DNA of 64,000 bases, from the NCBI GenBank assembly GCA_000004985.1, contig GG738863.1; one strand, given 5' to 3'. Made by a program: the position numbers and the translations under genes. The notes under the pieces were generated by a model. The model was not told the DNA's origin. It saw only the letters and a list, made by a program, of their open reading frames with translations, and made no database searches. Source of the stretch: Naegleria gruberi (lineage: Eukaryota). Positions 1-55,212 of the stretch are shown one piece after another. Every line of letters starts with the position of its first letter. Position 1 is the first letter of the stretch.

Positions 1-360
1 CCAACCCAAACCCAAACCCAACCCAAACCCAAACCCAAACCCAAACCCAAACCCAAACCCAAACCCAAACCCAAACCCAAACCCAAACCCAAACCCAAAC
101 CCAAACCCAAACCCAAACCCAAACCCAAACCCAAACCCAAACCCAAACCCAAACCCAAACCCAAACCCAAACCCAAACCCAAACCCAAACCCAAACCCAA
201 ACCCAAACCCAAACCCAAACCCAAACCCAAACCCAAACCAAAACCAAACCCAAACCCAAACCCAAACCCAAACCCAAACCCAAACCCAAACCCAAACCCA
301 AACCCAAACCCAAACCCAAACCCAAACCCAAACCCAAACCCAAACCCAAACCCAAACCCA
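1..360 (+). repeat. Terminal telomere array, (CCCAAA)n on the + strand (G-strand unit TTTGGG), with rare variants (CCCAAC at positions 1-20, CCAAAA/CCAAA at ~236-250)
   Basis: Seen directly: about 60 perfect hexamer units starting at base 1. The C-rich strand runs 5'->3' on +, which fits a left chromosome end. The array stops abruptly at 360 into unique AT-rich sequence. Confidence 0.9.
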
Positions 361-2826: not shown

Positions 2827-3800
2827 GTCCATAATTCAAAAGTTAGTACTGACCTGACCTTTAAATATCTATCAATATAAGAAATGAAACCATCAAATTT
2901 ACATCATTAATAGATGATAAGAAATATAATCAATGATATGAATCTTCACTAAGTAATCTCTTAAATAACCCAAATAAATCAACTCTGAATCCTAACCAAA
3001 CCCACAAGTATGAAAAGGATAAAATCTTGAAAAAGAACCACTATTGAAACTTTACCAACATGATGTAGATGATCTATAATGATGTAGAATTCAATTTCAT
3101 ATCATAAGAATCAGAAATGGTACCGTAGGAAGATAATGGTTGACTTTATAAGGATGACATTAAGGAAAGACAAGTCAGACCAACTCTATCAAATACATCA
3201 CTTCAATCAGCAAAATATATATGAAAATGCTCCATTCGATGTGTAGAGATAGAATATCAAGTTTATTTTAACTTTCATATTCAAGATTTCATCCCTTTCA
3301 TACCAACTAGTCAACTGAGTAAAACGAATGAAAATCTGGAAAATGACCACTCTATGAAACATTACCATCATGTTCAACATCTCAAATAATGTATATAATT
3401 CAGTTTTAAGACGTTTTGGTGAACATTCCATCTTTCAGTAAGGTACAGAGTGATTTATCAAGGTTGACTTGGGAAGATCAGGAGGAAATCTTGAATATAG
3501 AAAACCACATCCTCAATCTACAAAATACATATCAATCGATTGGAAATCATTAGTACATCTCGAAAATATAATTTATTTTATGTGTTGAAATCTCTCCTTG
3601 ACCTCTTTTAGTCAATTAAGACAATTAAGGATGATACTATAGGAAAAGTTACCAATCTCATAATAAATGATAATATCGTGTTCTACATCTCAAATAAAGT
3701 GGACTTTCTTCAAATTATATGTTTTCATTTCAAGAAATGCATCCAGTAGATAGTACATGCTGATTTGTCAGGAGAATGGAAATCTGAAGGGTCCAGAAAC
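2827..3800. repeat. Subtelomeric tandem repeat family (same ~300-bp unit as 400-1128); at least three progressively degenerate copies (~2830-3219, 3219-3520, 3520-3800)
   Basis: 3010-3300 aligns to 820-1128. The motifs ggaggaaatcttgaa and catctcaaataa recur at the expected ~300-bp spacing. Confidence 0.7.
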
Positions 3801-5025
3801 AACTCCAATTTCACTGAAATTGATATCATGGTATGTAGACACTCTAATTAGTATGTGGTATCAATTTCATGAATATTGGTTCAGTAGATGTCGAGATGTC
3901 AACACTATCAATTTACTATAGACATTTGACATAATATCATAGATTATACTCCAACTCACTCATTTTACATATAATAAGTCTAGAATTGATACCACATAGT
4001 CTATATATCAATTAATATACATCTACAATAGTTAAGAAACATTTCAAACTATTTTCATAAAATTAATCAGTAAATGTTCAATATCAACATTATATATATC
4101 CTAGTGAACACTCCATCTCAGTGAAAGTTATTCCAATCATTCTGTAACTTTACCCAATACGTCTAATCACATTATTATACATCTGGTATCAATTGCATAC
4201 TGTTAGAATTGAATTCAATATGATAATAATAACAATCTTTCAAAATGTCACATTTCAAAAAAAAGATTACACTCCATCTCAGTCAGTTTACAAAATATCA
4301 TACTAGAATCAAATATGAATACACTCCTCTTGATGAGGAGTACAATCTGAGAAAGTTTCAAATTGATGGCTCAGTATCTTCAAGTCAACTAAGTAACCTA
4401 AGAATAGACAAGTCAATTAAGTACATCAAGTCAACAATTGAAAATTGAAATATAGTATATTTATTACAAATTAATAGGACTATTCTAAATAACCATATTG
4501 TTTAAATCAATGTTTGTAAAGTTGTCAATACATCATGTCACAGATCATACTCTTTCTCAATGAATACTTGACTAAATCAATTGAAATTGACATCTAGTTG
4601 TTTATATGTAGTATTGTATATGTGGTATCAATATCTTTTAAAATTGTCAAGTATTAAGGAAGATCTAAAAAAATAAGGTGGTAATAATGAATAAGTTAGT
4701 AAAATCACCTTGAATCGATCACTCGTCACTTAATTGACACTCCAACATACAACCACTGAACCAACAGTGCTAACGCTTTAATTTCTAGAAATGATTCGTA
4801 TGAATAACCAAGGGGTTGTATGACTATTAAGGGAAAATTGTCGGTTTCTATTAAGAACAACAATTAACAACAAATAACAACAAGAATTGTATCATTATAT
4901 GATAATAACAATAATTTATTAAACGATATGGAAGGGAGAAGTTGCTCCCTCACCAAATGATGAGGGGAAGATTCAACTTGATGATCAAGAGATGGTACCT
5001 CCACCAATCTACTTAAATTATAGTA

Positions 5026-6440: not shown

Positions 6441-7736
6441 TTAGGCAAGACTAGCAGCCTCCATGATAACTTGATTATTTGTGAAAGAGAATGCATAAAC
6501 CATTTGATTTCCAGCAGACACAACAAACCTCGATCCATCTCCTGTGATTTTGGATGAGGCAGTTTTGAGAACCTTTCCATTCTGATCATTAGAAATAACT
6601 AAATATTTAGTTGCATCCATCAAAATAACAGATTGCCTATTGGGCTGTGCACTTGCAACAGTGAAGCCAGACAACTTGTTGTTTTGCCATGTTCCATCAA
6701 TTTCAAGACGCGCAATACTATTGTCTTTTTGAATGTCAAAACTTGTGTGTGTACCAAAGTATCCTCCAGAAAAACCAGTGTAAGCACTCAATGCACTGAA
6801 AATATGGACACTTGTTCCATTCTGAATTACAGAGCTAACGATGTTTGATGTCTCAGCCACTAATTTCTTGGCATCACCATAAAGAACTGTGACCATATCC
6901 GCCTTTTGAGCGTCAACATTAACTACACCCACAACTGAACTATCTTTTAAATTCATTCCCAAAATTAACCAACCTGGTAGTCCACTAAAACTCATACTAT
7001 CTACACCAGCACCAGAAAGGTAATCTGGAATTGTGAATCTGGAAATTAATTTCCCTGTTTGAATGTCCAATTTGTGAATGGTTTGATCACCTGTGGCCAC
7101 ATACAAATCTCTAGAGACAAGAAGAATATCAATTGGCTCATTATCACATTCGAAAGACCATAATTGCTTGAAATTTTTGGTTTCATACGCAATAACATGG
7201 CTATAAGTATACGTAATGAGAATAGTGCTGTCTTCTGAGAGGAGAATTACCATACCTGCTTGTTCCACTATCTTATAGAGAATATTCTTGGTATTTGTCA
7301 AATCTGCCTTAATCAATATTTTAGTACCATCACTTCCAATAAGAGTGAGATATGCATTACTATTTGAATCAATTACCAAGTTGGATTGTACTGGAGACAT
7401 GGTTGAGGGTGGTGCAGCATATTGTAAAATACTTTGATTTCCATTCAAAAGATCAACTTCAATAAATGTAAGATTGTATCTGTACAAATCAAAAATCAAT
7501 GCCTTTCCTCTATTGACATCAAATGCAACAGAACCAGAACTGGCAAAAGTGTCTTGAAACTTGGTAATCCATTCCTTGTGTGGTTTATAGAATTGAATAC
7601 TGTTACTACGATACTTGTCGGAATTTACATGTCCCCACGAAGGCAACAATTGACCATTCGCAACCTCTTCATACATGAATAAAATTGCCAATAATAATGC
7701 CAATAACCAAGTGGCTAATGTAACAATTTTGAACAT
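6441..7736 (-). CDS. Hypothetical secreted/membrane-anchored protein (431 aa) with an N-terminal signal/anchor and a beta-rich body
   Basis: ATG at 7736. N-terminal MFKIVTLATWLLALLLAILF. Long uninterrupted ORF. No domain recognised. Confidence 0.55.
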   Translation of the reverse strand: MFKIVTLATWLLALLLAILFMYEEVANGQLLPSWGHVNSDKYRSNSIQFYKPHKEWITKFQDTFASSGSVAFDVNRGKALIFDLYRYNLTFIEVDLLNGNQSILQYAAPPSTMSPVQSNLVIDSNSNAYLTLIGSDGTKILIKADLTNTKNILYKIVEQAGMVILLSEDSTILITYTYSHVIAYETKNFKQLWSFECDNEPIDILLVSRDLYVATGDQTIHKLDIQTGKLISRFTIPDYLSGAGVDSMSFSGLPGWLILGMNLKDSSVVGVVNVDAQKADMVTVLYGDAKKLVAETSNIVSSVIQNGTSVHIFSALSAYTGFSGGYFGTHTSFDIQKDNSIARLEIDGTWQNNKLSGFTVASAQPNRQSVILMDATKYLVISNDQNGKVLKTASSKITGDGSRFVVSAGNQMVYAFSFTNNQVIMEAASLA

Positions 7737-9383: not shown

Positions 9384-11002
9384 TTAATTTCTGAGAGAAA
9401 TCTGAATCTTCATGTTTGAAGAAGGTTGATTCATAGGAAGAGCCTCGTTTACAATAGGGTCAACACTTTCATCATTCAATAATTTAAATCTATACTTGGT
9501 TGCCATACAGCTCAATATCATACAAGATTCCAAAAGGGAAAATTTCTTTCCGATACATTGACGATTACCCATAGAGAAAGGAACCCAAATGAGGTTTTGA
9601 ATAGAATCATCCTTGGTGGTTGGATTGACGAAACGATCTGGAATGAATTCGTTTGGTTTCTCCCAAATGTCTTCTCTCTTGTGAAGAGAATTAAAGAGTG
9701 TATACACTATAGTTCCTTTTGGAATTGTATGATTACCTAAAGTGGTGTCCTTAGAAGCTACTCTACCATTAACAAGAACAGGAGAATCTTTTCTCAGAGT
9801 TTCCATCAGTACACTATTGACATAGCTCAATTGTTCATAATCATCCATGGTAGGATCTCTTCCATTTAACACCTTATTGACTTCTGTACATAGGGTATCT
9901 TGAATATCAGGACGTTTGGAAAGTTCATATAAAACCCATTGTAATAATGTTGATGTTGTCTAAAAAATATTAGATGAATATTATAAAAACCTTGAAAACC
10001 TACGTCATGACCAGCAAAAGCCATTGCCACACTGTTTGATTTTAATTCAGAATCAGAAATGAGCTTTTCAGACATGTTTGCTTCAACCAAACGAGTCAAA
10101 ATGTCACTTGTTTCATCGAGTGTCATTTCTCCAGTCTTTAACTTTTCCCTTCTTTCTCCAATAATTTTATCTAAATGATCACTACAGTGATTGATAGCAT
10201 CAGTAATACCAACAGCCTTTTCAATCATTCTTCCAATAAATCCTGACTTGAAAATTCCCTTAATAATCATCGTTTTCATTGTAAAGGTAGCATGAAGTGC
10301 ATTCTTGAACTTTTTACCTTCATCATTGCCTGAAAAGACACCAAAATCAAGATTAAAACCAGCCTTTCCCAATACTTGGAATGTAATATCGGATAAATCT
10401 TGTTTAGTTAGCAAGCAAGTTCCATTTCCTCCCTCTTGAATCTTGGTATTCCATCTTTCGAATAATTGCTCTACAGATTCAACTGTAACCTTACACATGT
10501 ATCTGAGATTAGTTGGAGAAAATGCAGGACTACACACTTTAAAGTGTTTCTTCCACTCTTCTGTGTGAAGAACAGTCACAATATTCTCACCAAAAACCTT
10601 GGCTATGGTCAAATCAGTCTTATCAAACGAACTAGCCTTGGTAATGAAAATCTCTTTCAATAATTTAGGATCATTGGTGCAGATAACTGAATTGTTAGCA
10701 GTTACAATTCTCATCAGATTACAATTATTCTCCTTGAAAAACTTGACAGCATGTTTCTCAGTCTCAAAGAAGGAAGCAATATAAAAGTATGGAGCCAATA
10801 TTGGAATCTTGAAAGGAGCCTTCTCAAAGAATTGAATCACACCTGGAATGTCCTTCATCTTTGCATAGTTGGAATATAATTTGAACAAACTCTTGAGAAG
10901 ATAGGTAAGGAACATGACCAAAAATGTTGTACCAACGATCATAGTCAGTGAAATTTCATAAGAAAACTTGTCATTGTGTGGATCAACAACACCTTTGTCC
11001 AT
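9384..11002 (-). CDS. Cytochrome P450 monooxygenase, two exons (11002-10004 and 9959-9384; intron 9960-10003, 44 nt, GTAGGT…TTTAG), ~524 aa
   Basis: Heme-binding loop PFSMGNRQCIGKKF (FxxGxRxCxG) and ETLR are present. The I-helix AGHD|TTS is split by the intron. There is an N-terminal membrane anchor. Both exon lengths keep the reading frame. Confidence 0.85.
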
Positions 11003-11223
11003 TTTTTTATCTTTCTTTTTGTTTGGATATGAGTTATTTGCCGCCTTCTTGTTTATTTTGCATCCAACTCCTCCACTAGCGGTCTAAGAATTTCTTCACT
11101 ACTCCTTGCAGAGGCATTACCAGCCAATCGTAAGTTTTCTTGAACAATTCTCAATTTGGATAATGATTGATCGGAAGAAAAGAATCATCATAAAAAATAG
11201 AGAGTAACAAAATATCATCATCC

Positions 11224-38520: not shown

Positions 38521-38838
38521 ATGAACGTTTGGATCACCATCGCCGCTCTTGCTGCTCTAGTATTGAATTTTGCTTGTGTTGTGGAAGCTAATTATCCAAT
38601 GGTGGAGGCCTCTGTTATTGCTCTTAATAGTACAGGGAATGGTACTACACCATTTGTTTATGACTTTTGGCGTATCAACAAGCCACCAATCATTGGTGGT
38701 ATAATAGTTTTAGTAGTTGGTGTAATCATTGCTATTATCGGAGGAGGTATTTATTATTGGAAGAAGAGAAGGGATGCTAGACAAACCCAACATGATGAAC
38801 ACGAAGATATGCATCGTCTTGAGGATGAAGATCATTAA
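38521..38838 (+). CDS. Small single-pass membrane protein (105 aa) with a signal peptide, a G/I-rich TM and an acidic His-rich tail
   Basis: MNVWITIAALAALVLNFACVVEA… IIGGIIVLVVGVIIAIIGGGIYYW KKRRD…HDEHEDMHRLEDEDH. Confidence 0.45.
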   Translation: MNVWITIAALAALVLNFACVVEANYPMVEASVIALNSTGNGTTPFVYDFWRINKPPIIGGIIVLVVGVIIAIIGGGIYYWKKRRDARQTQHDEHEDMHRLEDEDH

Positions 38839-42711: not shown

Positions 42712-44001
42712 ATGTCTCAACACCTGTCATTAAAATATCTACTATTACTTGCATTTTTGCAATTTCTCACACTCCAACTCCTCACCACACATGCCTACAT
42801 TATCAATATTGAAAGTTTTAATCCGACTTATTTACAATTTTGCTTGTCGGATGCCAAAAACTCTTCACAAGTTTTCACAAATGTTCAAATCATGACTTAT
42901 GACTGGGAAACAAATATTGAAAATCCAGTTTTGACATATTATCCAATGCAGAATTATGCTAAAAATTGCTATTATTTGGGAGCTCCCACAAATGCTCATA
43001 TTTTCTTTCTTCCAGCTACTGTAAAGTTTTCCATAAATGGAAATGAACAGGTTGAGTTGAAGAATATAATTTCACAAATGAGTGTTATGAAAATAGATAC
43101 TTCAACTGTTAATCAAACTATTTCTCATGCAAACGAATTGAAAATTCCAATTGCAAATCAAACATTTGCCTATCAAACAGTTGTAACCTATTTCACACCA
43201 AATGCAGGAGCTTGTCAATTGAATCCAATTCCAACTGAATATGCCACCATGTATGCAGCCATTAGAGTTCAGGATTGGTCAACTTCCAGAGTTTGTGGTC
43301 AATGTTTACGTCTATGCAATGCCACTGGTCATTCTGTTGAAGTTTTAGTTACTGACATGTGTCCATTTCCTAATTTATGTACCAGATACAATTGGTTAGA
43401 TATAAGTGATACTGCCTTTAATTATCTGAGTGGAGGAAACTTGGGATGGGGAGTTCAACAATTAACTTGGAGATTTGTCCAATGCACAAAATTCAAATCT
43501 TCAACTCCATCACCAAATATGAGTTTTCTCTTTACTGATTACTCGAGAAATTATGGATTTGAATTACAAGTGAGAAATTTCAATATTGGATTGAAATCTG
43601 TCGATATTCAAAGTAAAGTTCAGGGAAATTGGATTTCATTGAATAGAACTGAGGGAAATACTTGGTTATACACAACTGGAAATGTTATTACATGTCCATG
43701 TAGAGTGAGATTGACATCCATTTCTGGACAGGTTGTTATTGATGAAAATGCAGTCAACCAAGACATTGGATCACTTCCTAAAAAACCAGAATATTTGAAT
43801 ACAACTGTTCAATTTGATAACATTCCAAGTGGATATGAAAGTTCCAATTCATGCATTCCTTCAGTATTCAATCCAATCACTCCAATCACTTCTACCAATC
43901 AACCAAGAGGTTCAAACAGTTCGAGAATGGTAAATGCTTCCTCAACACATTTCATTAATGGATTCATTGCTTTAAGCTGTTTATTATTATTCTTCTTTTA
44001 A
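42712..44001 (+). CDS. Expansin-like protein (DPBB domain + CBM63-like domain) with a signal peptide and a C-terminal hydrophobic GPI-anchor-type tail, ~430 aa
   Basis: GACQLNPIPTEYATMYAAIRVQDWSTSRVCGQCLRLCNATGHSVEVLVTDMCPFPNLC…WLDISDTAFNYL is DPBB-like; the HFD motif is replaced. WRFVQC…ELQVRNFNIG…WISLNRTEGNTWLY is the beta-sandwich domain. C-terminus …FINGFIALSCLLLFFF. Confidence 0.7.
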   Translation: MSQHLSLKYLLLLAFLQFLTLQLLTTHAYIINIESFNPTYLQFCLSDAKNSSQVFTNVQIMTYDWETNIENPVLTYYPMQNYAKNCYYLGAPTNAHIFFLPATVKFSINGNEQVELKNIISQMSVMKIDTSTVNQTISHANELKIPIANQTFAYQTVVTYFTPNAGACQLNPIPTEYATMYAAIRVQDWSTSRVCGQCLRLCNATGHSVEVLVTDMCPFPNLCTRYNWLDISDTAFNYLSGGNLGWGVQQLTWRFVQCTKFKSSTPSPNMSFLFTDYSRNYGFELQVRNFNIGLKSVDIQSKVQGNWISLNRTEGNTWLYTTGNVITCPCRVRLTSISGQVVIDENAVNQDIGSLPKKPEYLNTTVQFDNIPSGYESSNSCIPSVFNPITPITSTNQPRGSNSSRMVNASSTHFINGFIALSCLLLFFF

Positions 44002-44109
44002 TATTAACTTTTGAATATTAAACATCATCATTTTCATAATCAAGTAAAGTAAATATTAAATAAAATTAAATTTTTGAAAATAATAAAAAATTCCGTGATC
44101 CGAAAAAAA

Positions 44110-46250
44110 ATGGTTAAAATTCAAACTCTTATCAAGAATCGATTATCGCAATTTTTTAAGCAACTCGCAACGAGTAGTACCATCATTGTTGGTTATTTGA
44201 TCGGATTGAATAAGGTTGATCAACAAAATGATGAGCAAGTTATTCTCAACTTTATGAAGAGTCTTTCAAATTTTGATCAAGATGAATTGGATTTAATGCA
44301 GCAAGTGATTATTCCGAATGGAATGGACATGTTGGGAATTTATATTACTGCTAATAGTGTTGGAAAATTGTTGGGAGAGGCTGCGTTGAGTGATTTGGTT
44401 CAAAATTTGCCTCTATTGATAAGTAAACAATTCAACAAATTGATCGGAAGAGAATTATTAATAATGGTTGGTGGAGCATCATCAATTGATTTGTATAGAG
44501 TGAGTAAGGACAATAATTGTACAATGGAAAGTTTTGAAGAGTTTTCCGAATTGAATATTATTGGAGATAGAGGAGATTTGTCCAATTTAAAGGAAGATCA
44601 ATTATCTTGTGTGATTGCTCGTGTTCATTGCGATTTGAACATTGTCTATCAAGTAGATTCCAGTAACAAGTCAGAAAATGACTCTACAGTAGAGAGCTTT
44701 AAACGTCAAACTGACAGATTTATTCAAACTTTGAAAAAGCCAGAAAATGTAATATTGAAAACTCTTCCAGAACAATCAGAAACAGCCACCCCTTCTCGTA
44801 AGAATAAGAATGCTCAACAAGCATCCAATAATTTGGTAGCCAGTGTGGAGATTCATGACTCTGCAGAGACTCTCTCACAAAATGTGGAAACCATCTTGCC
44901 AGAAAAACTCTCCCTCATCGATCAATCTACACAACATCTCAAAGTTGATGCCAATTTTAACAAGAAGGAAACTACCAAGAATAAGAAGAAAAAGCTCCCA
45001 AAACAAACCCTTGGAGAATTCCTTAAAACTACAGAAAAATTGAACGATGCCTCACAAACCATGACAACCATTTCTAAAATTCTGCACTTGAATTGTTTTG
45101 TCAGCATGGCTCCAAATCAATATAGTACCGAGCAAGGAATTGTCATTTCAACAGACAAAAAACTCACAAATTGTACCATCAGCTTGGAATCTTCATCTTA
45201 TATTCCAGTAAGTGCTTTAAAGAAATCACTCTCCCTTGGAAGAATTCGTGAAATTGTCATTGAAGGATTAATCAAACAACTCGTCTATATTAGTAACAAT
45301 ATTGGAAAGGGATTCCTTGTTACAAGTGTTGGAGCTAACAAGTCTTTAAAGAATATTGGATTTTACCAATTCCTTCCAAAGGATTATCCTCACATTTTCA
45401 CATGTTGCTACCCATTCTACAGTGAAGATCTCGTTTTTGAACAACGAAATGAACAATATTGCATCAAATTGAGAGAGGAATATCACAAGAGACTCTACTT
45501 TTCACTCAAGCAACCATTCATTAGAACTAATCAGGCATTGGCTTTTGGACGCTCTTCCAAATCCAAAGTTAGTGATTTTAACAAGAAGATCTTGAATGTT
45601 CACAATTATGTTGGCTATCCTTCCACAATCAAATCATCAGGAGCCAATAATTTACATCTTGTTCGTGGCGACTATTTATATGCTCACTATTGCCAAGATA
45701 AATTCAATGATGAAGGATGGGGATGTGCCTACAGAAGTCTTCAAACACTTATTTCACATGCTCAATATCATTCTGGTTCTCTCGTTGTCAACTTGCCAAC
45801 CCATGATGAAATTCAAAAGTGTCTAGTAGATTGTGGAGATAAGCAAAGTCCTTCTTGGGCTCTTCTCAATGGATTGGCGCTTTTGAAAATACCATTGTTC
45901 TGGAAAAGTGGTGCGGTATTCAAAGTAAAGTTCTGTATGTAAATAGAGGTGATGAAATGAATTCACATGCAAGAGCCATCGCCAATCACTTTGATGTTAA
46001 TGGTAGTCCAATTATGATAGGAGGTGGTGTTCTTGCATACACCATGTTGGGAATTGAATTTGATGAAATGACTGGAGAGGTATCCTACCTCATTTTGGAT
46101 CCTCATTTCACTGGTAGTATTAGTGACCCAGAATATTTGGAAGATGTCATTTCAGGAGGATGGTGCGGATGGAAGACCAGAGAACAAGTATTCAAAGATA
46201 GTGTCTTTTACAATTTGTGTATGCCTCAATTAACAGCAGATTCTGTTTAA
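44110..46250 (+). CDS. UFSP-like (Ufm1-specific protease, peptidase C78) gene with a -1 frameshift near 45850 that splits it into two overlapping ORFs (44074-45942 and 45855-46250)
   Basis: N-terminal MPN-like IVGYLIGLNK…MLGIYIT. The catalytic region CQDKFNDEGWGCAYRSLQTL sits in frame A. …SSQWIGAFENTIVL…GSPIMIGGGVLAYTMLGIEFDEMTGEVSYLILDPHFTG…GGWCGWK…YNLC sits in frame B. No GT…AG intron fits the junction. Confidence 0.65.
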
Positions 46251-46277
46251 ATAAATCAGTTTACAAAAAATAATTTA

Positions 46278-49038
46278 TTACAATTTCATAAAGTGTTTAC
46301 CTGTGACTGGACAAACGTTCATGTTTTTAGCACAAATATAATGTGTAACGACACCATTAGGATAACAAACAAAGGCACTCATACCTAATTTCTTATTGCA
46401 CACTGCACAAGTTCTATCTGGTTTAACCTTTACAACTCTCTTTCTTTCCTTAATGACTTCTTCGTGAACTTGGAGATTCTCAGATCGATTGATATTTTTC
46501 ATAATTTGAGCACGTCTCTTTTGTTCCGTATGGCACCTCAGAGTTGCTTCAAAGTACTTCATCAAATCAGATATTGGAACATTTTCTGGGAGCAATTTAA
46601 TTGCCTTGATCAAGTCAATCTTTGAAAAGTGACGTTCCAATAATCCAATAGCATCTTCAAAGAATAAATTGTTTTCTGTACTGGCACTTTGCTTTAAAAT
46701 CATATTGAGAAGAATGATAAATATTTCCCTACTTTCTTCACTTCCATCTGGATTATAGTGTTGCTCGCAATATTTCTCAGCCTTATCCATACTTTCCAAT
46801 TTGGTAACATAGATAGTCAGAGCTTGGGAGTGTCTATTAATCTTACTCAACAAAATAGCTCTCTCTTCGTACAGGGAATCGAATGGGAATCTCGAAAGCA
46901 TCTTTTCAGAGTGGTAAAAAGTAGAGTGGGTCAAAAAGTCGTTCATTCTACGCTTGACATCCTTAACTGGTTGAAGGAGTCCAGGAATACTATCTTCCTC
47001 ATAGTTGGATGCTGATGTTGAGTATTTGGTCACATATTCCAAATAGTACAATAAAAGTTGATTGTGAAGGTTTGGATCCACAGATTTTTCAACCTTAATC
47101 AAGTGTTCCAAATAGGCAATCTTCATGGCCAGAGCATGATCAAACAAATCCAAGTGAGATAAAATTTCATTTACACTAATTGGACAATTTGGTACTTGGA
47201 AAATCTTTAAACCACGAAGTGGCTCAGCACTGAGTACCCACTTTGAGAATTCTAAAATGTACTGTTGTCCTTCTCCAACCTGTTGTAATTCCTTCAAATA
47301 GTTAATAGTTGGCATGACACCAATCAAGTCGGTGTAAATAGATGTTGCTGATGACTTGTCTCCCAATAATTTCAACAATTCAAGAGCTCTATCGTGCAAC
47401 CCTTTGGTCTTGTAGAAGAGAACCAACTCTCTAAACTTTTGATGGGAGTGGAGGGTCTTTTGACTGTCCATAATGTTACAATGATTTGGTTGGGTGATAA
47501 AATCTTCAACGTGAGGGTCATTAGTGTATAAAAGTGCCTTCAATAATGCTGTATCAACTGCCTCAGCTTCATCTAGAGCTTGCTCATTCAAATCCTTTTC
47601 TGTTGTTCTTCTGTGAAGCAAGTATTGAATCAGGGCTTGAAGGGCCTTATTTCTTTGTTCAATATCCTTTAAAAAGTGATCAATCTTTCGTTGCTCTTCA
47701 GAAGTGTAAGGGAGGGAGAATTTAAATGAAGATTTTGGTGGTAACAAATCAGGGAAGAGTGAAATAATCATACGTGGATCATCTTTAGTCTTATCAAAAT
47801 GTTCCATTGCCTTGTCAAATTCACCTTTGGCAAACAAGTGAAAACCAAATTGTGTGTGAATGGAACTAACTCTCCAATCTTCAATCTTATATCTGGTATT
47901 CTCTACAGTATTACAGAGATGGAGAGCCAATTCAAATTGTTGATTGGATAAGAGTTCTCCAGCTTGCAAATCAAATTGTTTCATTACCATAACATAGATG
48001 GAACTCTTTGAAGCGAGGAAAATTCTATTTTCTGGATCAATGGTGTCATCTCTGTCGAGTTCATTTCTTACCTTGAATCCAACACCCATACCATGATCCA
48101 TATTTTCTGGATGATCCAAATCAATGAAATTCTGTTGACTTGTTGTAATGATATCCTTGAGTGGAAGACTCTGAATGAAAGTATCCTTTTTCACAGTGGT
48201 ACTCAAAATTCTAACCTCAACAAAAACAGAGAGTGGTGCAATGAGGTATGGTTTCAAATAGCCAATCATGTTTGGAGCTTCACTCCATCCAATACCATGT
48301 GATCGTGAAGGTTTACCAGAAAAGTTGATGGTCACACCAATTCCATTCAAAACCACAATAGTTTCATTGGGAAGTGATAATCCAAGAGTATTTTGTTGTG
48401 AAACACCTGTATCGAAAAGTTTTTGTGGCATGGCAGATGGCTTTAATACATCAATTAATGAATATTCCTTTTTGAAACCAACACAGAGCTTGTCGCCACT
48501 CCAATTCAAAGATTTGGCAGCATCTGGCAGAACCAATTCCTGTTGATATTTAAATTTAGATTCCTTACTACCATATTCAAAGATTGAAATCTTTTTCTTT
48601 GATGCAACTGCCATTGTAAATTCACCATTGTGCTTTTTCAGAGCAAAAAACATGCATCCCTTCAATTGATTTTGCTATCAATTTAATTACACTCAAAATA
48701 TTCCAAATTATTCTTACCTTTAAATTCTTGAGTGTATCAATTTCACTCAACATTCCGAGAGTATATACTTTAATAAATCCATCTGTCAAACAAATCAACA
48801 TTCCCAATTCTGGAACTGAGCACATTTGAGTGATTGGCTTTTTGCTAAATTGTTTCTTTTGACTGTCCAGAGCACAAGTAAACTTTTCCTTGTTTGCCTT
48901 TTTATCATATCGAATATTGTAAAGGGATAAGGTACCATCAGTGGTGGCCACAAAAAGAGTATTGCACCACACACACAATGATTCTACCTTTCCCAATCCA
49001 TCCAATAATTGGAAATATTCAAAGGCTGTATGTCCCAT
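46278..49038 (-). CDS. Vam6/Vps39/TRAP1-like tethering-complex subunit (CNH domain + helical repeats + C-terminal zinc-binding tail). Two exons: 49038-48718 and 48674-46278. Intron 48717-48675 (43 nt; alternative acceptor at 48660), ~905 aa
   Basis: N-terminal MGHTAFEYFQLLDGLGKVESLCVWCNTLFVATTDGTLSLY (CNH-like). C-terminal CAVCNKKLGMSAFVCYPNGVVTHYICAKN. Donor GTAAGA; the 43-nt choice matches the local intron size. Confidence 0.7.
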
Positions 49039-49929
49039 TGTTTTAATAAATTATTCTTCTTCCGAATATAAAATCCAACAAATTAATTTCCTATAACTAT
49101 TGTGTCTCTGATCTTGTTCAACAATTCCGTTCTTTCGATCTATCGTATTTGATGCTGATGATAATATTTTCAGAGTTTGATTATTATTATCGTGTGATGA
49201 CCAAGAAGAACGAGAAAAGATTTTTTTATAAAATTAAAATTGAATTTTATTGTTTTAAAAAAAACTAATAAAAGATTTTATTTGTTCCAGCCAACAGAAA
49301 GCTGTTTTTTACCTTCTTCTCATTACTGTTCGTGTCGATTTGATAGCGATTTGATGGATTGTATTTTAATTGATTGTGCCTCTCTTAAAGCGGAGGTAAC
49401 TACTTTCTTCTACAAACTTGTATGTGCGGAGAAGGAAATCCTCGTGCTTCCTCTCTTCATATCTTCATAATAAAAAGTTTATTCTTCAAAATATTTAATA
49501 GATAAGAGATTATCAAAAAATTTGCCAACCAACCACCAGATTCTGTTTGATTAGCAAAATCCGCTTTGCAATTGTTTATTCACTGCGTTTTAAATACGTT
49601 TTCTTCATCATCAGAGAGAGTGGTTTTTAAAAAGTTGTGTGTTTGGTTTAATCAATAGTACAATTCACTAGAACAATAACAACAAATCTTCATCATTAAC
49701 TTCTCTCTAGGTTTTACTTACAATATCAAGTAATATATTAAAGCGCACATCTTATATCTAATAAGGAGAACAACAAGTCTACTACTATTAGAATAATATT
49801 ATTTAAATTATTTACACACCACCATCATAATACAAATTGGTAACAATACGGAAGGATAACAATTTAATTATCATCAACTACCATCATTAATTTAAACAAC
49901 ATCACATCAAAATATAAAAGCGAATAACA

Positions 49930-51009
49930 ATGCTGTCAGATTCTAATTCCTTCATGATGGAAGATCAACAAATGCCTCCTTCTTCGTCATCTTCTTCTGC
50001 TTCTTCTTCCCCTGCTCCTTCCTCTCCACTTTCACCTCATCATACAGCAACTTTTGAAACAAACATGCTTGATGAATATGGAAGCAGTATCAATCACCCT
50101 TCTAAGCCACTTAACACAACAAATACAGCAACAACAACACTAAATAATGCATCCAACAATAATATAGAACACATGAGATCAGCTGGCAATGATGATTCTT
50201 TACCACCTATTGCTTCCATACCACCAAACAATTCAACTTCTCGTGTTGTTAATGTTGGGCCAATTATGAATGCAATTCAAGCTTATAGTGGTAATAATGG
50301 TAATAGTACACTTGTTGATAATGTAAATGTCAGAATATCCTCCGCCTCATCTTCATGTTCAACCATTTCAGATCATTCTATGAATAATACAATGATTAAT
50401 GGACAAGCACCAAAACCACTTAATGATTTTGAAAATGTATTTGCTAGTTTCAAGAAGAGAAATAGAGAACAATACGAAAATAATAATCAATCCTCGTCAT
50501 CATCTGATCCAGTTTCATATATTAGAGATTTGGAAGATAAAATTGATTTTATGGCACAATTAGTCACTATTCAATCTGCCAAAATGAGAAAGATGGAAAT
50601 GAGATTGAAAAAATTGGAAAACTTACTTCCTCAATCAGGGGATGAATTTGTAAATTCAGGCAATCTTCATCGTATGCCACATAGTGATGAGTTATCATCA
50701 ATTAGTGATGATATACCAACATTTTCAGCACCAAAGAAGGAAAAGGGTAATAGACAACCTAATGCCTATAATATTTTCATGAAGGGAGAAATTCAACGTA
50801 TTCGAACAACTCACACAGAATTAACACAAAAACAGGCATTTAAACTTGCTGCCAATAATTGGACTTTGAAGAAATCTGAAATCCTTGGAGCTTCAAATGG
50901 TTCACAGAAAAAACCAGACGACAGAACTAGCACAGTAAGCACACCTAGTGATACTACCATGGCAGATTCACTTTCTGAAACACCACTCAATCAACTTGAC
51001 GAAAAGTAA
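49930..51009 (+). CDS. HMG-box-like / YABBY-like DNA-binding domain protein (359 aa) with a coiled-coil and an S/N-rich N-terminus
   Basis: PKKEKGNRQPNAYNIFMKGEIQRIRTTHTELTQKQAFKLAANNW aligns by eye with the YABBY consensus PSAYNRFIKEEIQRIKA.NPDISHREAFS.AAKNW and with HMG boxes. Coiled-coil IRDLEDKIDFMAQLVTIQSAKMRKMEMRLKKLENLL. Confidence 0.55.
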   Translation: MLSDSNSFMMEDQQMPPSSSSSSASSSPAPSSPLSPHHTATFETNMLDEYGSSINHPSKPLNTTNTATTTLNNASNNNIEHMRSAGNDDSLPPIASIPPNNSTSRVVNVGPIMNAIQAYSGNNGNSTLVDNVNVRISSASSSCSTISDHSMNNTMINGQAPKPLNDFENVFASFKKRNREQYENNNQSSSSSDPVSYIRDLEDKIDFMAQLVTIQSAKMRKMEMRLKKLENLLPQSGDEFVNSGNLHRMPHSDELSSISDDIPTFSAPKKEKGNRQPNAYNIFMKGEIQRIRTTHTELTQKQAFKLAANNWTLKKSEILGASNGSQKKPDDRTSTVSTPSDTTMADSLSETPLNQLDEK

Positions 51010-51261
51010 AGATTTAATTTTTCAAATATGATGACCCATTCATCAGATTTACTATTATCAAGAGTTGACCAACCTGGCCATTCAAAATTTCTATTTCTTC
51101 TAGGAAAGGATGTGGATTGCCTCTTGGATTTGATGAGAAAAAGGTCTTTTTAGATTTTTCAAAGAAAAAGAATCTTCACAACTCATGTTTCCTAATACCA
51201 ACAACATTCAATAATTTATTATCATTTTGCAAAACAGAAATATACTTTAACAGATAATAAT

Positions 51262-52783
51262 ATGGCATTCGGATCGTGCGNNNNNNNNNNNNNNNNNNNN
51301 NNNNNNNNNNNNNNNNNNNNNNNNNNNNNNNNNNNNNNNNNNNNNNNNNNNNNNNNNNNNNNNNNNNNNNNNNNNNNNNNNNNNNNNNNNNNNNNNNNNN
51401 NNNNNNNNNNNNNNNNNNNNNNNNNNNNNNNNNNNNNNNNNNNNNNNNNNNNNNNNNNNNNNNNNNNNNNNNNNNNNNNNNNNNNNNNNNNNNNNNNNNN
51501 NNNNNNNNNNNNNNNNNNNNNNNNNNNNNNNNNNNNNNNNNNNNNNNNNNNNNNNNNNNNNNNNNNNNNNNNNNNNNNNNNNNNNNNNNNNNNNNNNNNN
51601 NNNNNNNNNNNNNNNNNNNNNNNNNNNNNNNNNNNNNNNNNNNNNNNNNNNNNNNNNNNNNNNNNNNNNNNNNNNNNNNNNNNNNNNNNNNNNNNNNNNN
51701 NNNNNNNNNNNNNNNNNNNNNNNNNNNNNNNNNNNNNNNNNNNNNNNNNNNNNNNNNNNNNNNNNNNNNNNNNNNNNNNNNNNNNNNNNNNNNNNNNNNN
51801 NNNNNNNNNNNNNNNNNNNNNNNNNNNNNNNNNNNNNNNNNNNNNNNNNNNNNNNNNNNNNNNNNNNNNNNNNNNNNNNNNNNNNNNNNNNNNNNNNNNN
51901 NNNNNNNNNNNNNNNNNNNNNNNNNNNNNNNNNNNNNNNNNNNNNNNNNNNNNNNNNNNNNNNNNNNNNNNNNNNNNNNNNNNNNNNNNNNNNNNNNNNN
52001 NNNNNNNNNNNNNNNNNNNNNNNNNNNNNNNNNNNNNNNNNNNNNNNNNNNNNNNNNNNNNNNNNNNNNNNNNNNNNNNNNNNNNNNNNNNNNNNNNATT
52101 TATTGTGGAATGATTATTTGAATTCTGTTCAACAATTTCAATTGGAACCCAATAATACTCATCATTATCATCCATTGAAAACATTCAAGGCGAGAGTGAA
52201 GAATTTCTCTGGAGTTTTACTTTCCTCTCCAACAATTTCAATGAGTTTCATATATAATCAGGTATTTTGGATTACACCTTATGGAAAGGGTGATTCGTCC
52301 AATAATTTTGAATATTATAGGGAGAGAATTGAGAGAGCTATTTCAAATTTCAATTTGCATGTGTTAAAGTTTTTGGTTGTGCCTGTTTTACGGATATTCC
52401 CTTCACTTCCATTGTATCCACCATTTGGAATACCGTGTGCTCAACCAAAATGCAGAGAACGTTTCCAAAATGATGCTCTACTTTACAAGGGCTACTGGAA
52501 GAGTTCAACATCTATTTCCATTTTGGAAGAGATGAGGAGTGTGAAAATTTTACTGGCCTCCTTTAATCCTGACCAATCTCAATCCACACAGAACGTACCC
52601 ACACTCATTGTATACGGAGAATCTGATAATTTCTTCTCGTGGGACGAAACTAAACATCTCTTCTCCAAACATTTTCAAAATATAACATGGAAATCATATC
52701 CCAATCTTAAACACGACGTTTTCCATGAGGATGTTAAAGAACCAGTGTGCAGAGATTTATACAACCTTGTTGTAAGAAACTGA
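51262..52783 (+). CDS. Alpha/beta-hydrolase (MGLL/lysophospholipase-like) gene interrupted by an 817-N gap; only the C-terminal ~225 aa (52098-52783) and a possible start (51262 MAFGSC) are visible
   Basis: C-terminal PTLIVYGESDNFFSWDETKHLF…NLKHDVFHE (Asp/His region of hydrolase_4). The frame across the gap is unknown. Confidence 0.45.
51281..52097. other. Assembly gap (817 N)
   Basis: Run of n. Confidence 0.99.
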
Positions 52784-55046: not shown

Positions 55047-55140
55047 ATAGATTTAAATCTCATAAAACCAAAAAACTAATGGTTAACAAACCGTTCACTT
55101 GTATTCGAAAGTTGAAATAATATGAAATTATCATAAAAAG

Positions 55141-55212
55141 AGAGGTATCGGCGATTCGAACCCCGGACCTGAAGATGTGCTGTCTACCGCTCTCCCACTG
55201 AGCTAATACCCC
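55141..55212 (-). tRNA. tRNA-like gene, closest to tRNA-Cys(GCA), with non-canonical features; possibly a pseudogene
   Basis: Minus strand GGGGTATTAGCTCAGTGGGAGAGCG…GGTTCGAATC…ATACCTCT. Acceptor stem 7 bp with one G-U. A-box and B-box are present, and a T5 run follows immediately after the 3' end. BUT the anticodon loop reads CAGCACA (A at 33, C at 37), and there are a T·T mismatch in the anticodon stem and a G·G mismatch in the T stem. Confidence 0.55.

Follow-up and report, generated by a model that had tools for sequence, protein, structure and literature searches.

The 64,000-nucleotide stretch of Naegleria gruberi DNA analysed here (the window) begins with a tandem array of the hexamer CCCAAA. 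The locus raises the question of whether this array is a telomere, and of which organism, of what its irregular units say about the enzyme that would have made them, and of whether it caps the chromosome whose genes follow it.

Identity of the array at the window edge

The array is oriented as follows.

1-360, + strand: telomere array A, (CCCAAA)n, which is the C-strand; the G-strand TTTGGG runs 5' to 3' toward position 1

Direct reading and tokenising gave 56 perfect CCCAAA units, and tokenising resolved the variant units as a truncated CCAA at 1, CCCAA at 17, CCAAAA at 238 and CCAAA at 244. Tandem Repeats Finder placed the array at 3-360 with a period of 6, 60 copies and 98% matches. Inward, the array ends at A360, where ...CCCAAACCCA is followed directly by GAACTAAAAATAG. 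A three-unit 18-mer, searched with at most one mismatch, gave 112 matches, on the + strand only and confined to 1-362 or 2452-2827 (the latter interval corresponding to a second array, B, described below), and 0 matches in 100 dinucleotide-preserving shuffles. Neither (CCCAAA)2 nor (TTTGGG)2 was found on either strand in the other 61 kb outside arrays A and B. A sequence-only reading of the same DNA had placed a CCCAAA array at 1-360, and this is confirmed by direct reading, tokenising, Tandem Repeats Finder and the shuffles. Its list of variant units proved accurate; its description of a perfect array with an abrupt end at 360 holds for the abrupt end at A360, "perfect" being slightly overstated in view of the four variant units.

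A telomere tract is recognised as a tandem of a T/G-rich unit whose G-rich strand runs 5' to 3' toward the end, and about 60 CCCAAA units in this arrangement were found on the + strand at the left edge. Array A occupies the sequence edge, and the subtelomeric repeats inward of it are AT-rich and contain no genes. The earlier proposal of a telomere-type array built on the unusual unit TTTGGG was thereby supported, the polarity being correct for a left end (C-rich strand 5' to 3' inward on the + strand). Considered as a whole, 1-360 is very probably the telomeric repeat tract of N. gruberi strain NEG-M, written as its C-rich strand.

TTTGGG is the published candidate telomere of N. gruberi, derived from the same genome assembly (Fulneckova et al. 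2013, Genome Biol Evol 5:468; PMC3622300). In that study, according to its available text, 143 genome assemblies were scanned for terminal, correctly oriented minisatellites, terminal occurrence of TTTGGG across the N. gruberi assembly was reported, and experimental tests were said to be still needed to confirm the terminal position. The organism, the assembly, the hexamer and the criteria used (terminal position and orientation on scaffolds) are the same as here, and the window is one instance of that result. The double array, the subtelomeric repeat of about 310 bp and the variant units presented below are not described in the available text of the article (PMC3622300). The TTTGGG telomere of N. 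gruberi is already known, and array A is real, not new.

A second array across the scaffold gap

A gap and a second array of the same kind follow contig A.

1129-2450, no strand: scaffold gap, 1,322 N between contigs A and B
2451-2826, + strand: telomere array B, with the CCCAAA unit and polarity of array A, beginning at the first base after the gap

The run of 1,322 N at 1129-2450 means that the first 1,128 bp form a separate small contig (contig A, 1-1128, with an ambiguous base, N, at 999). Its length of about one or two Sanger reads, together with the N at 999, suggests low coverage. Contig B, which holds every gene of the window, opens with array B, which the sequence-only reading had missed. 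Array B contains 58 perfect units (period 6, 63 copies, 98% pure, by tokenising and Tandem Repeats Finder), its variants being a C to G change at 2500, CCCAA at 2638, CCAAAA at 2643 and CCAAA at 2649. Its inner end reads ...CCCAA followed by GTCCATAATTC. The spacing between arrays A and B is about 2.1 kb and their polarity is identical. The proximal side of array B is sequenced from 2827 onward, and its distal side is the gap of 1,322 N.

By position alone, array A reaches window position 1 and array B reaches the edge of its contig. The earlier statement that 1-360 is a true chromosome end is ambiguous, since contig B, inward of contig A, also opens with a telomere array; judged from the sequence, either of the two may cap the chromosome.

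Subtelomeric sequences

The DNA next to the two arrays was divided into contig-specific flanks and copies of a repeat common to both contigs.

361-753, no strand: contig A-specific subtelomeric flank, 393 bp, AT-rich, unique, without ORF
754-1128, + strand: copies of the ~310-bp subtelomeric repeat in contig A (754-847 partial, unit positions 206-299; 849-1128 cut by the contig end)
2827-3013, no strand: contig B-specific subtelomeric flank, 187 bp, unique, with degenerate telomere-like motifs at 2967-2974 and 2996-3004
3014-4309, + strand: degenerate tandem copies of the ~310-bp subtelomeric repeat in contig B (3014-3321, 3326-3580, and weaker copies to about 4309)

Degenerate telomere-like pieces also lie past array A, at 379-411 (CTAAACCCAA..CAAACCCTAGCCCAAAA). 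No similarity was detected between the flanks adjoining arrays A (361-753) and B (2827-3013), and no ORF or transposon feature was found in 361-1128. The repeat copies of contig B match one another at 57% over 1,035 bp with an offset of about 310 bp; the repeat was not detected by Tandem Repeats Finder. The contig A copy at 849-1126 and the first contig B copy at 3013-3289 share 88% identity, the differences being scattered substitutions. The interval from array B to the first gene, about 3.6 kb long and AT-rich, contains no ORF of at least 100 aa. These surroundings (repeats, degenerate telomere-like motifs, and no ORF of that size before the first gene) are typical subtelomere anatomy. The possibility that contig A is the contig B locus assembled twice was considered and rejected, the array flanks being unrelated and the shared unit only 88% identical.

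Genes of the window and lineage

The following genes of contig B are referred to below.

6441-7736, - strand: first gene inward of the arrays, 100% full-length identity to N. gruberi NAEGRDRAFT_79425 (XP_002678146.1 / EFC45402.1)
9387-11083, - strand: cytochrome P450 in two overlapping ORFs (9869-11083 corresponding to Pfam profile positions 7-276, and 9387-9959 to 277-455)
46281-48674, - strand: Vps39/Vam6-like ORF, 791 aa, with CNH, Vps39_1 and zf-Vps39_C domains
55140-55212, - strand: tRNA-Cys (GCA), the sole RNA gene detected in the window (Rfam)

The sequence-only reading had held that the lineage could be inferred from the array, and had compared its variant units with those of some ciliates. 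A ciliate-like lineage does not agree with the genes: the standard genetic code applies, and the first gene is that of N. gruberi XP_002678146.1, which makes the organism a heterolobosean amoeba and not a ciliate. The longest ORF measures 1,242 aa under the standard code and 1,257 aa under the ciliate code (code 6). A ciliate origin was rejected on the grounds of the long ORFs under the standard code and of proteins that come from N. gruberi. At ciliate macronuclear ends, TAA and TAG would be read as glutamine, and telomeres would be added de novo to ends that have no subtelomere in common; the window does not fit this description, its genes using the standard code and its two array-bearing ends both carrying the ~310-bp repeat family. 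A dictyostelid origin, suggested by proteins rich in N, Q and S, was likewise dropped in view of the Naegleria and Willaertia matches given below, and a search of the literature turned up nothing for it. The motif by itself gives no lineage, because Paramecium and environmental contigs also carry TTTGGG or (CCCAAA)n.

The product of NAEGRDRAFT_79425 has a weak match to the PQQ_2 beta-propeller. Further inward, the genes are ordinary ones, encoding a SCAMP-family protein, the cytochrome P450, a RasGEF, a protein kinase and an NHL-repeat protein. The division of the cytochrome P450 between two overlapping ORFs suggests a short intron or a frameshift. The Vps39/Vam6-like ORF shares 83% identity with a Naegleria fowleri protein and 69% with a Willaertia magna protein, and no identical N. 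gruberi protein was found for it in the database, where the best N. gruberi entry reaches 59% over 54% of the query; judging from these matches, the N. gruberi annotation may lack a model for this gene.

Variant units

Every variant of arrays A and B alters a C or A run by one base, in length or in identity, and the variants make up about 3-7% of units, a share at which the telomere tract is close to homogeneous. One compound variant, CCAAAA-CCAAA, is present at 238-248 in array A and at 2643-2653 in array B; its G-strand form is TTTGG-TTTTGG, in which the third G is changed to T in one unit and lost in its neighbour. A slip of telomerase could account for it. Its recurrence in array B means that it is not an independent random slip, and leaves an inherited, a recurrent or an assembly effect. 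Two of the array A variants sit at the contig edge, where the base quality of a low-coverage Sanger contig is presumably poorest, and the C to G change of array B lies 49 nt from the edge of its contig.

CCCCAA units are absent from arrays A and B (0, compared with 56 and 58 perfect CCCAAA units), and all 4 CCCCAA hexamers of the window lie outside the arrays. A telomere of the Paramecium type is a random mix of both hexamers at comparable frequency. With no CCCCAA in the arrays, that of N. gruberi is not such a mixed telomere.

In Paramecium, TTTGGG is mixed with TTGGGG (10.1101/2025.11.06.686955). The likeness to N. gruberi is that Paramecium has TTTGGG among its two units and that variation falls at a single position of the hexamer; the N. 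gruberi arrays differ in having no TTGGGG/CCCCAA and only about 3-7% variants, and in coming from a heterolobosean, whose genetic code is the standard one. The Tetrahymena-type TTGGGG and the vertebrate-type TTAGGG are likewise T/G-rich hexamers with a run of three or four G, and RNA-templated synthesis by telomerase is presumed for Naegleria as for them, whereas the Naegleria unit is one base off each.

Environmental contigs carrying the hexamer

When metagenome contigs were scanned for (CCCAAA)6, 120 loci were obtained. Among the arrays lying at most 30 nt from a true contig end, 30 had the polarity consistent with a telomere and 8 did not, a balance that speaks for the telomeric reading of the unit. 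The (CCCAAA)6 loci showed no resemblance to the subtelomere or to the proteins of the window.

Thirteen contigs of a single metagenome WGS project, JAESGV01 (L007, L029, L031, L042, L054, L077, L078, L082, L083, L084, L102, L115 and L120), belong to this group of contig-end arrays and end in (CCCAAA)n with telomere-consistent polarity. They have no subtelomere in common, and they contain long ORFs with standard stop codons. Two of them, L082 and L083, carry a few CCCCAA-like units near the junction, and in L084 (1-3900) a retroelement pol ORF with RVT_1, RT_RNaseH and rve integrase domains directly adjoins the terminal (CCCAAA)n. An assignment of the 13 contigs to ciliates, made because longer ORFs were obtained under code 6, was withdrawn. 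In-frame TAA and TAG are present only at the ends of genuine long ORFs, and are therefore stop codons; the code-6 ORFs of the AT-rich contigs are low-complexity artefacts. All that follows from the JAESGV01 contigs is that there are other eukaryotes whose contigs are capped by TTTGGG.

A separate observation concerns the interior of the window. The ENA metagenome contig k127_365944 (ERZ929261, ERR1078381, PRJEB11402; L001, 86-8085) is 99.0% identical over 8 kb to window positions 43285-51279, an identity that indicates DNA of a near-identical Naegleria strain in the PRJEB11402 sample. The match stops at the edge of a gap of 817 N (51281-52097), into which the first 85 bases of k127_365944 may extend.

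Presumed telomere synthesis and search for a telomerase RNA

By analogy with other eukaryotes, telomerase would add TTTGGG to the 3' end of the G-strand by copying an RNA template that is a permutation of CCCAAA; fill-in of the C-strand would follow, and telomere-binding proteins would cap the duplex and its overhang. No recognisable telomerase RNA was found in the 64-kb window, where Rfam at gathering thresholds gave just the tRNA-Cys. Three 9-mers matching the permuted repeat occur outside the arrays in the 64 kb, close to our chance estimate, and they are located in the subtelomere, antisense in a large ORF, and inside a small ORF. The 9-mer at 38782 was rejected as a telomerase RNA template: it lies inside a small membrane-protein ORF, and a permissive Rfam scan there gave a chance match only. 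A literature search on Naegleria TERT, telomerase RNA and the telomeres of long-read Naegleria genomes returned nothing usable, and the Naegleria telomerase RNA appears to be undescribed.

Weighing of the alternative explanations

Two other accounts of the array itself were considered. The hexamer does occur as an ordinary microsatellite, the (CCCAAA)6 matches in metagenome contigs being mostly short, internal and high in GC. That array A is such a non-telomeric repeat, present by chance at an assembly edge, is nevertheless extremely improbable in view of two arrays of at least 360 bp, each at a contig edge with telomere polarity, of 61 kb of further sequence without such an array on both strands, of flanks of subtelomere type, and of the fact that the unit had been assigned as the telomere in print from its terminal occurrence in the assembly as a whole (PMC3622300). 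The other account is that of the sequence-only reading, which took the variants as the mixed-unit product of an imprecisely templating telomerase, as in ciliates; on this view they would be signs of enzyme infidelity and of a ciliate-like lineage. It draws on the fact that every variant is a one-base change in a C or A run, the central one being TTTGG-TTTTGG on the G-strand, and on the telomerase of Paramecium, which yields TTTGGG and TTGGGG via misincorporation at one template position (10.1101/2025.11.06.686955); the compound variant found in both arrays could moreover represent a recurrent slip. Against this, neither array contains a CCCCAA unit, array A varies in only 4 of about 60 units, two of which lie at most 21 nt from the contig edge, and the genes are those of N. 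gruberi, read with the standard genetic code. A mixed-unit telomere is accordingly judged very unlikely. The rare variant units very probably reflect either noise introduced at contig edges by sequencing or assembly or infrequent telomerase slips that were inherited, in a telomere that is not of mixed units.

The arrangement of the two arrays is a matter of more even balance. Contigs A and B may well be two different telomere-bearing ends (paralogous ends or divergent haplotypes) that have the ~310-bp repeat in common and were chained by the scaffolder, an explanation to which we give about as much weight as to all others taken together. The scaffolder would in this case have joined the contigs through mate pairs, and array B would cap the genes of the window. 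This explanation is favoured because array B starts exactly at a contig edge, because it is as pure as array A, as expected of a telomerase-maintained tract and unusual for an old interstitial block, because the sequences adjacent to the arrays (361-753 and 2827-3013) are unrelated, because the shared ~310-bp unit is only 88% identical between the contigs, and because contig A is so short. It has against it the links of the assembler, which put contig A 1.3 kb outside array B and which, at face value, support nesting. Under nesting the scaffold would be correct, array A being the terminus and array B a long interstitial block, with a module of about 2.1 kb bounded by telomere repeats between them. 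The contigs are indeed linked by a sized gap (1,322 N) and not by one of default size, the arrays are head-to-tail with one polarity, the ~310-bp repeat family follows both, the compound variant CCAAAA-CCAAA is common to both as in a duplicated module, and Paramecium has internal telomere blocks of the same orientation kilobases from its chromosome ends (10.1101/2025.11.06.686955). On the other hand, the distal side of array B is a gap, so that no non-telomeric base is seen attached there; decay is usual in interstitial blocks, and array B is still 98% pure; and 361-1128 is without ORF or transposon feature. The proximal flanks of the arrays have no similarity, so that this is no simple recent duplication of a module including the array and its junction, since the junction flank should have been copied too. 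A correct scaffold with nested arrays is thus considered somewhat unlikely. Neither model explains everything. The compound variant, being present in both arrays, suggests a shared ancestry or an error that telomerase makes repeatedly, and neither is well explained by two separate ends chained by the scaffolder. Other assembly artefacts, for example a chimeric clone, are an unlikely source of the arrangement of contig A and array B, and less probable than nesting.

Nested arrangements of this kind have precedents in other organisms. In yeast, tandem Y' elements are separated by internal TG1-3 telomere tracts. At the ends of Paramecium MIC (germline) chromosomes, internal telomere blocks flank Helitrons in the same orientation (10.1101/2025.11.06.686955). 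The window resembles both in that about 2.1 kb separate two equally oriented telomere tracts and that subtelomeric repeats are present between and inside them; it differs in that the distal junction of the inner tract falls in a gap, that the sequenced intervening DNA is without ORF or transposon signature, and that the arrangement may be a scaffolding artefact.

Significance for Naegleria

The significance of the locus is mostly one of annotation: a scaffold of the N. gruberi reference reaches the telomere, and the scaffolding of its first 2.8 kb is probably at fault, a nested telomere module being the other possibility. The unit TTTGGG restricts the template of the Naegleria telomerase RNA to a permutation of CCCAAA. 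The nested arrangement, if real, is the sole mildly novel possibility here. If the scaffold is right, Naegleria chromosome ends would carry nested modules, consisting of an internal, near-perfect (TTTGGG)n of at least 376 bp, an element of about 2.1 kb made of ~310-bp repeats, and a terminal tract; the TTTGG-TTTTGG variant common to both tracts would then be a mark of module duplication, and the whole would be a Y'-like or telomere-targeted element architecture, so far undescribed in Heterolobosea.
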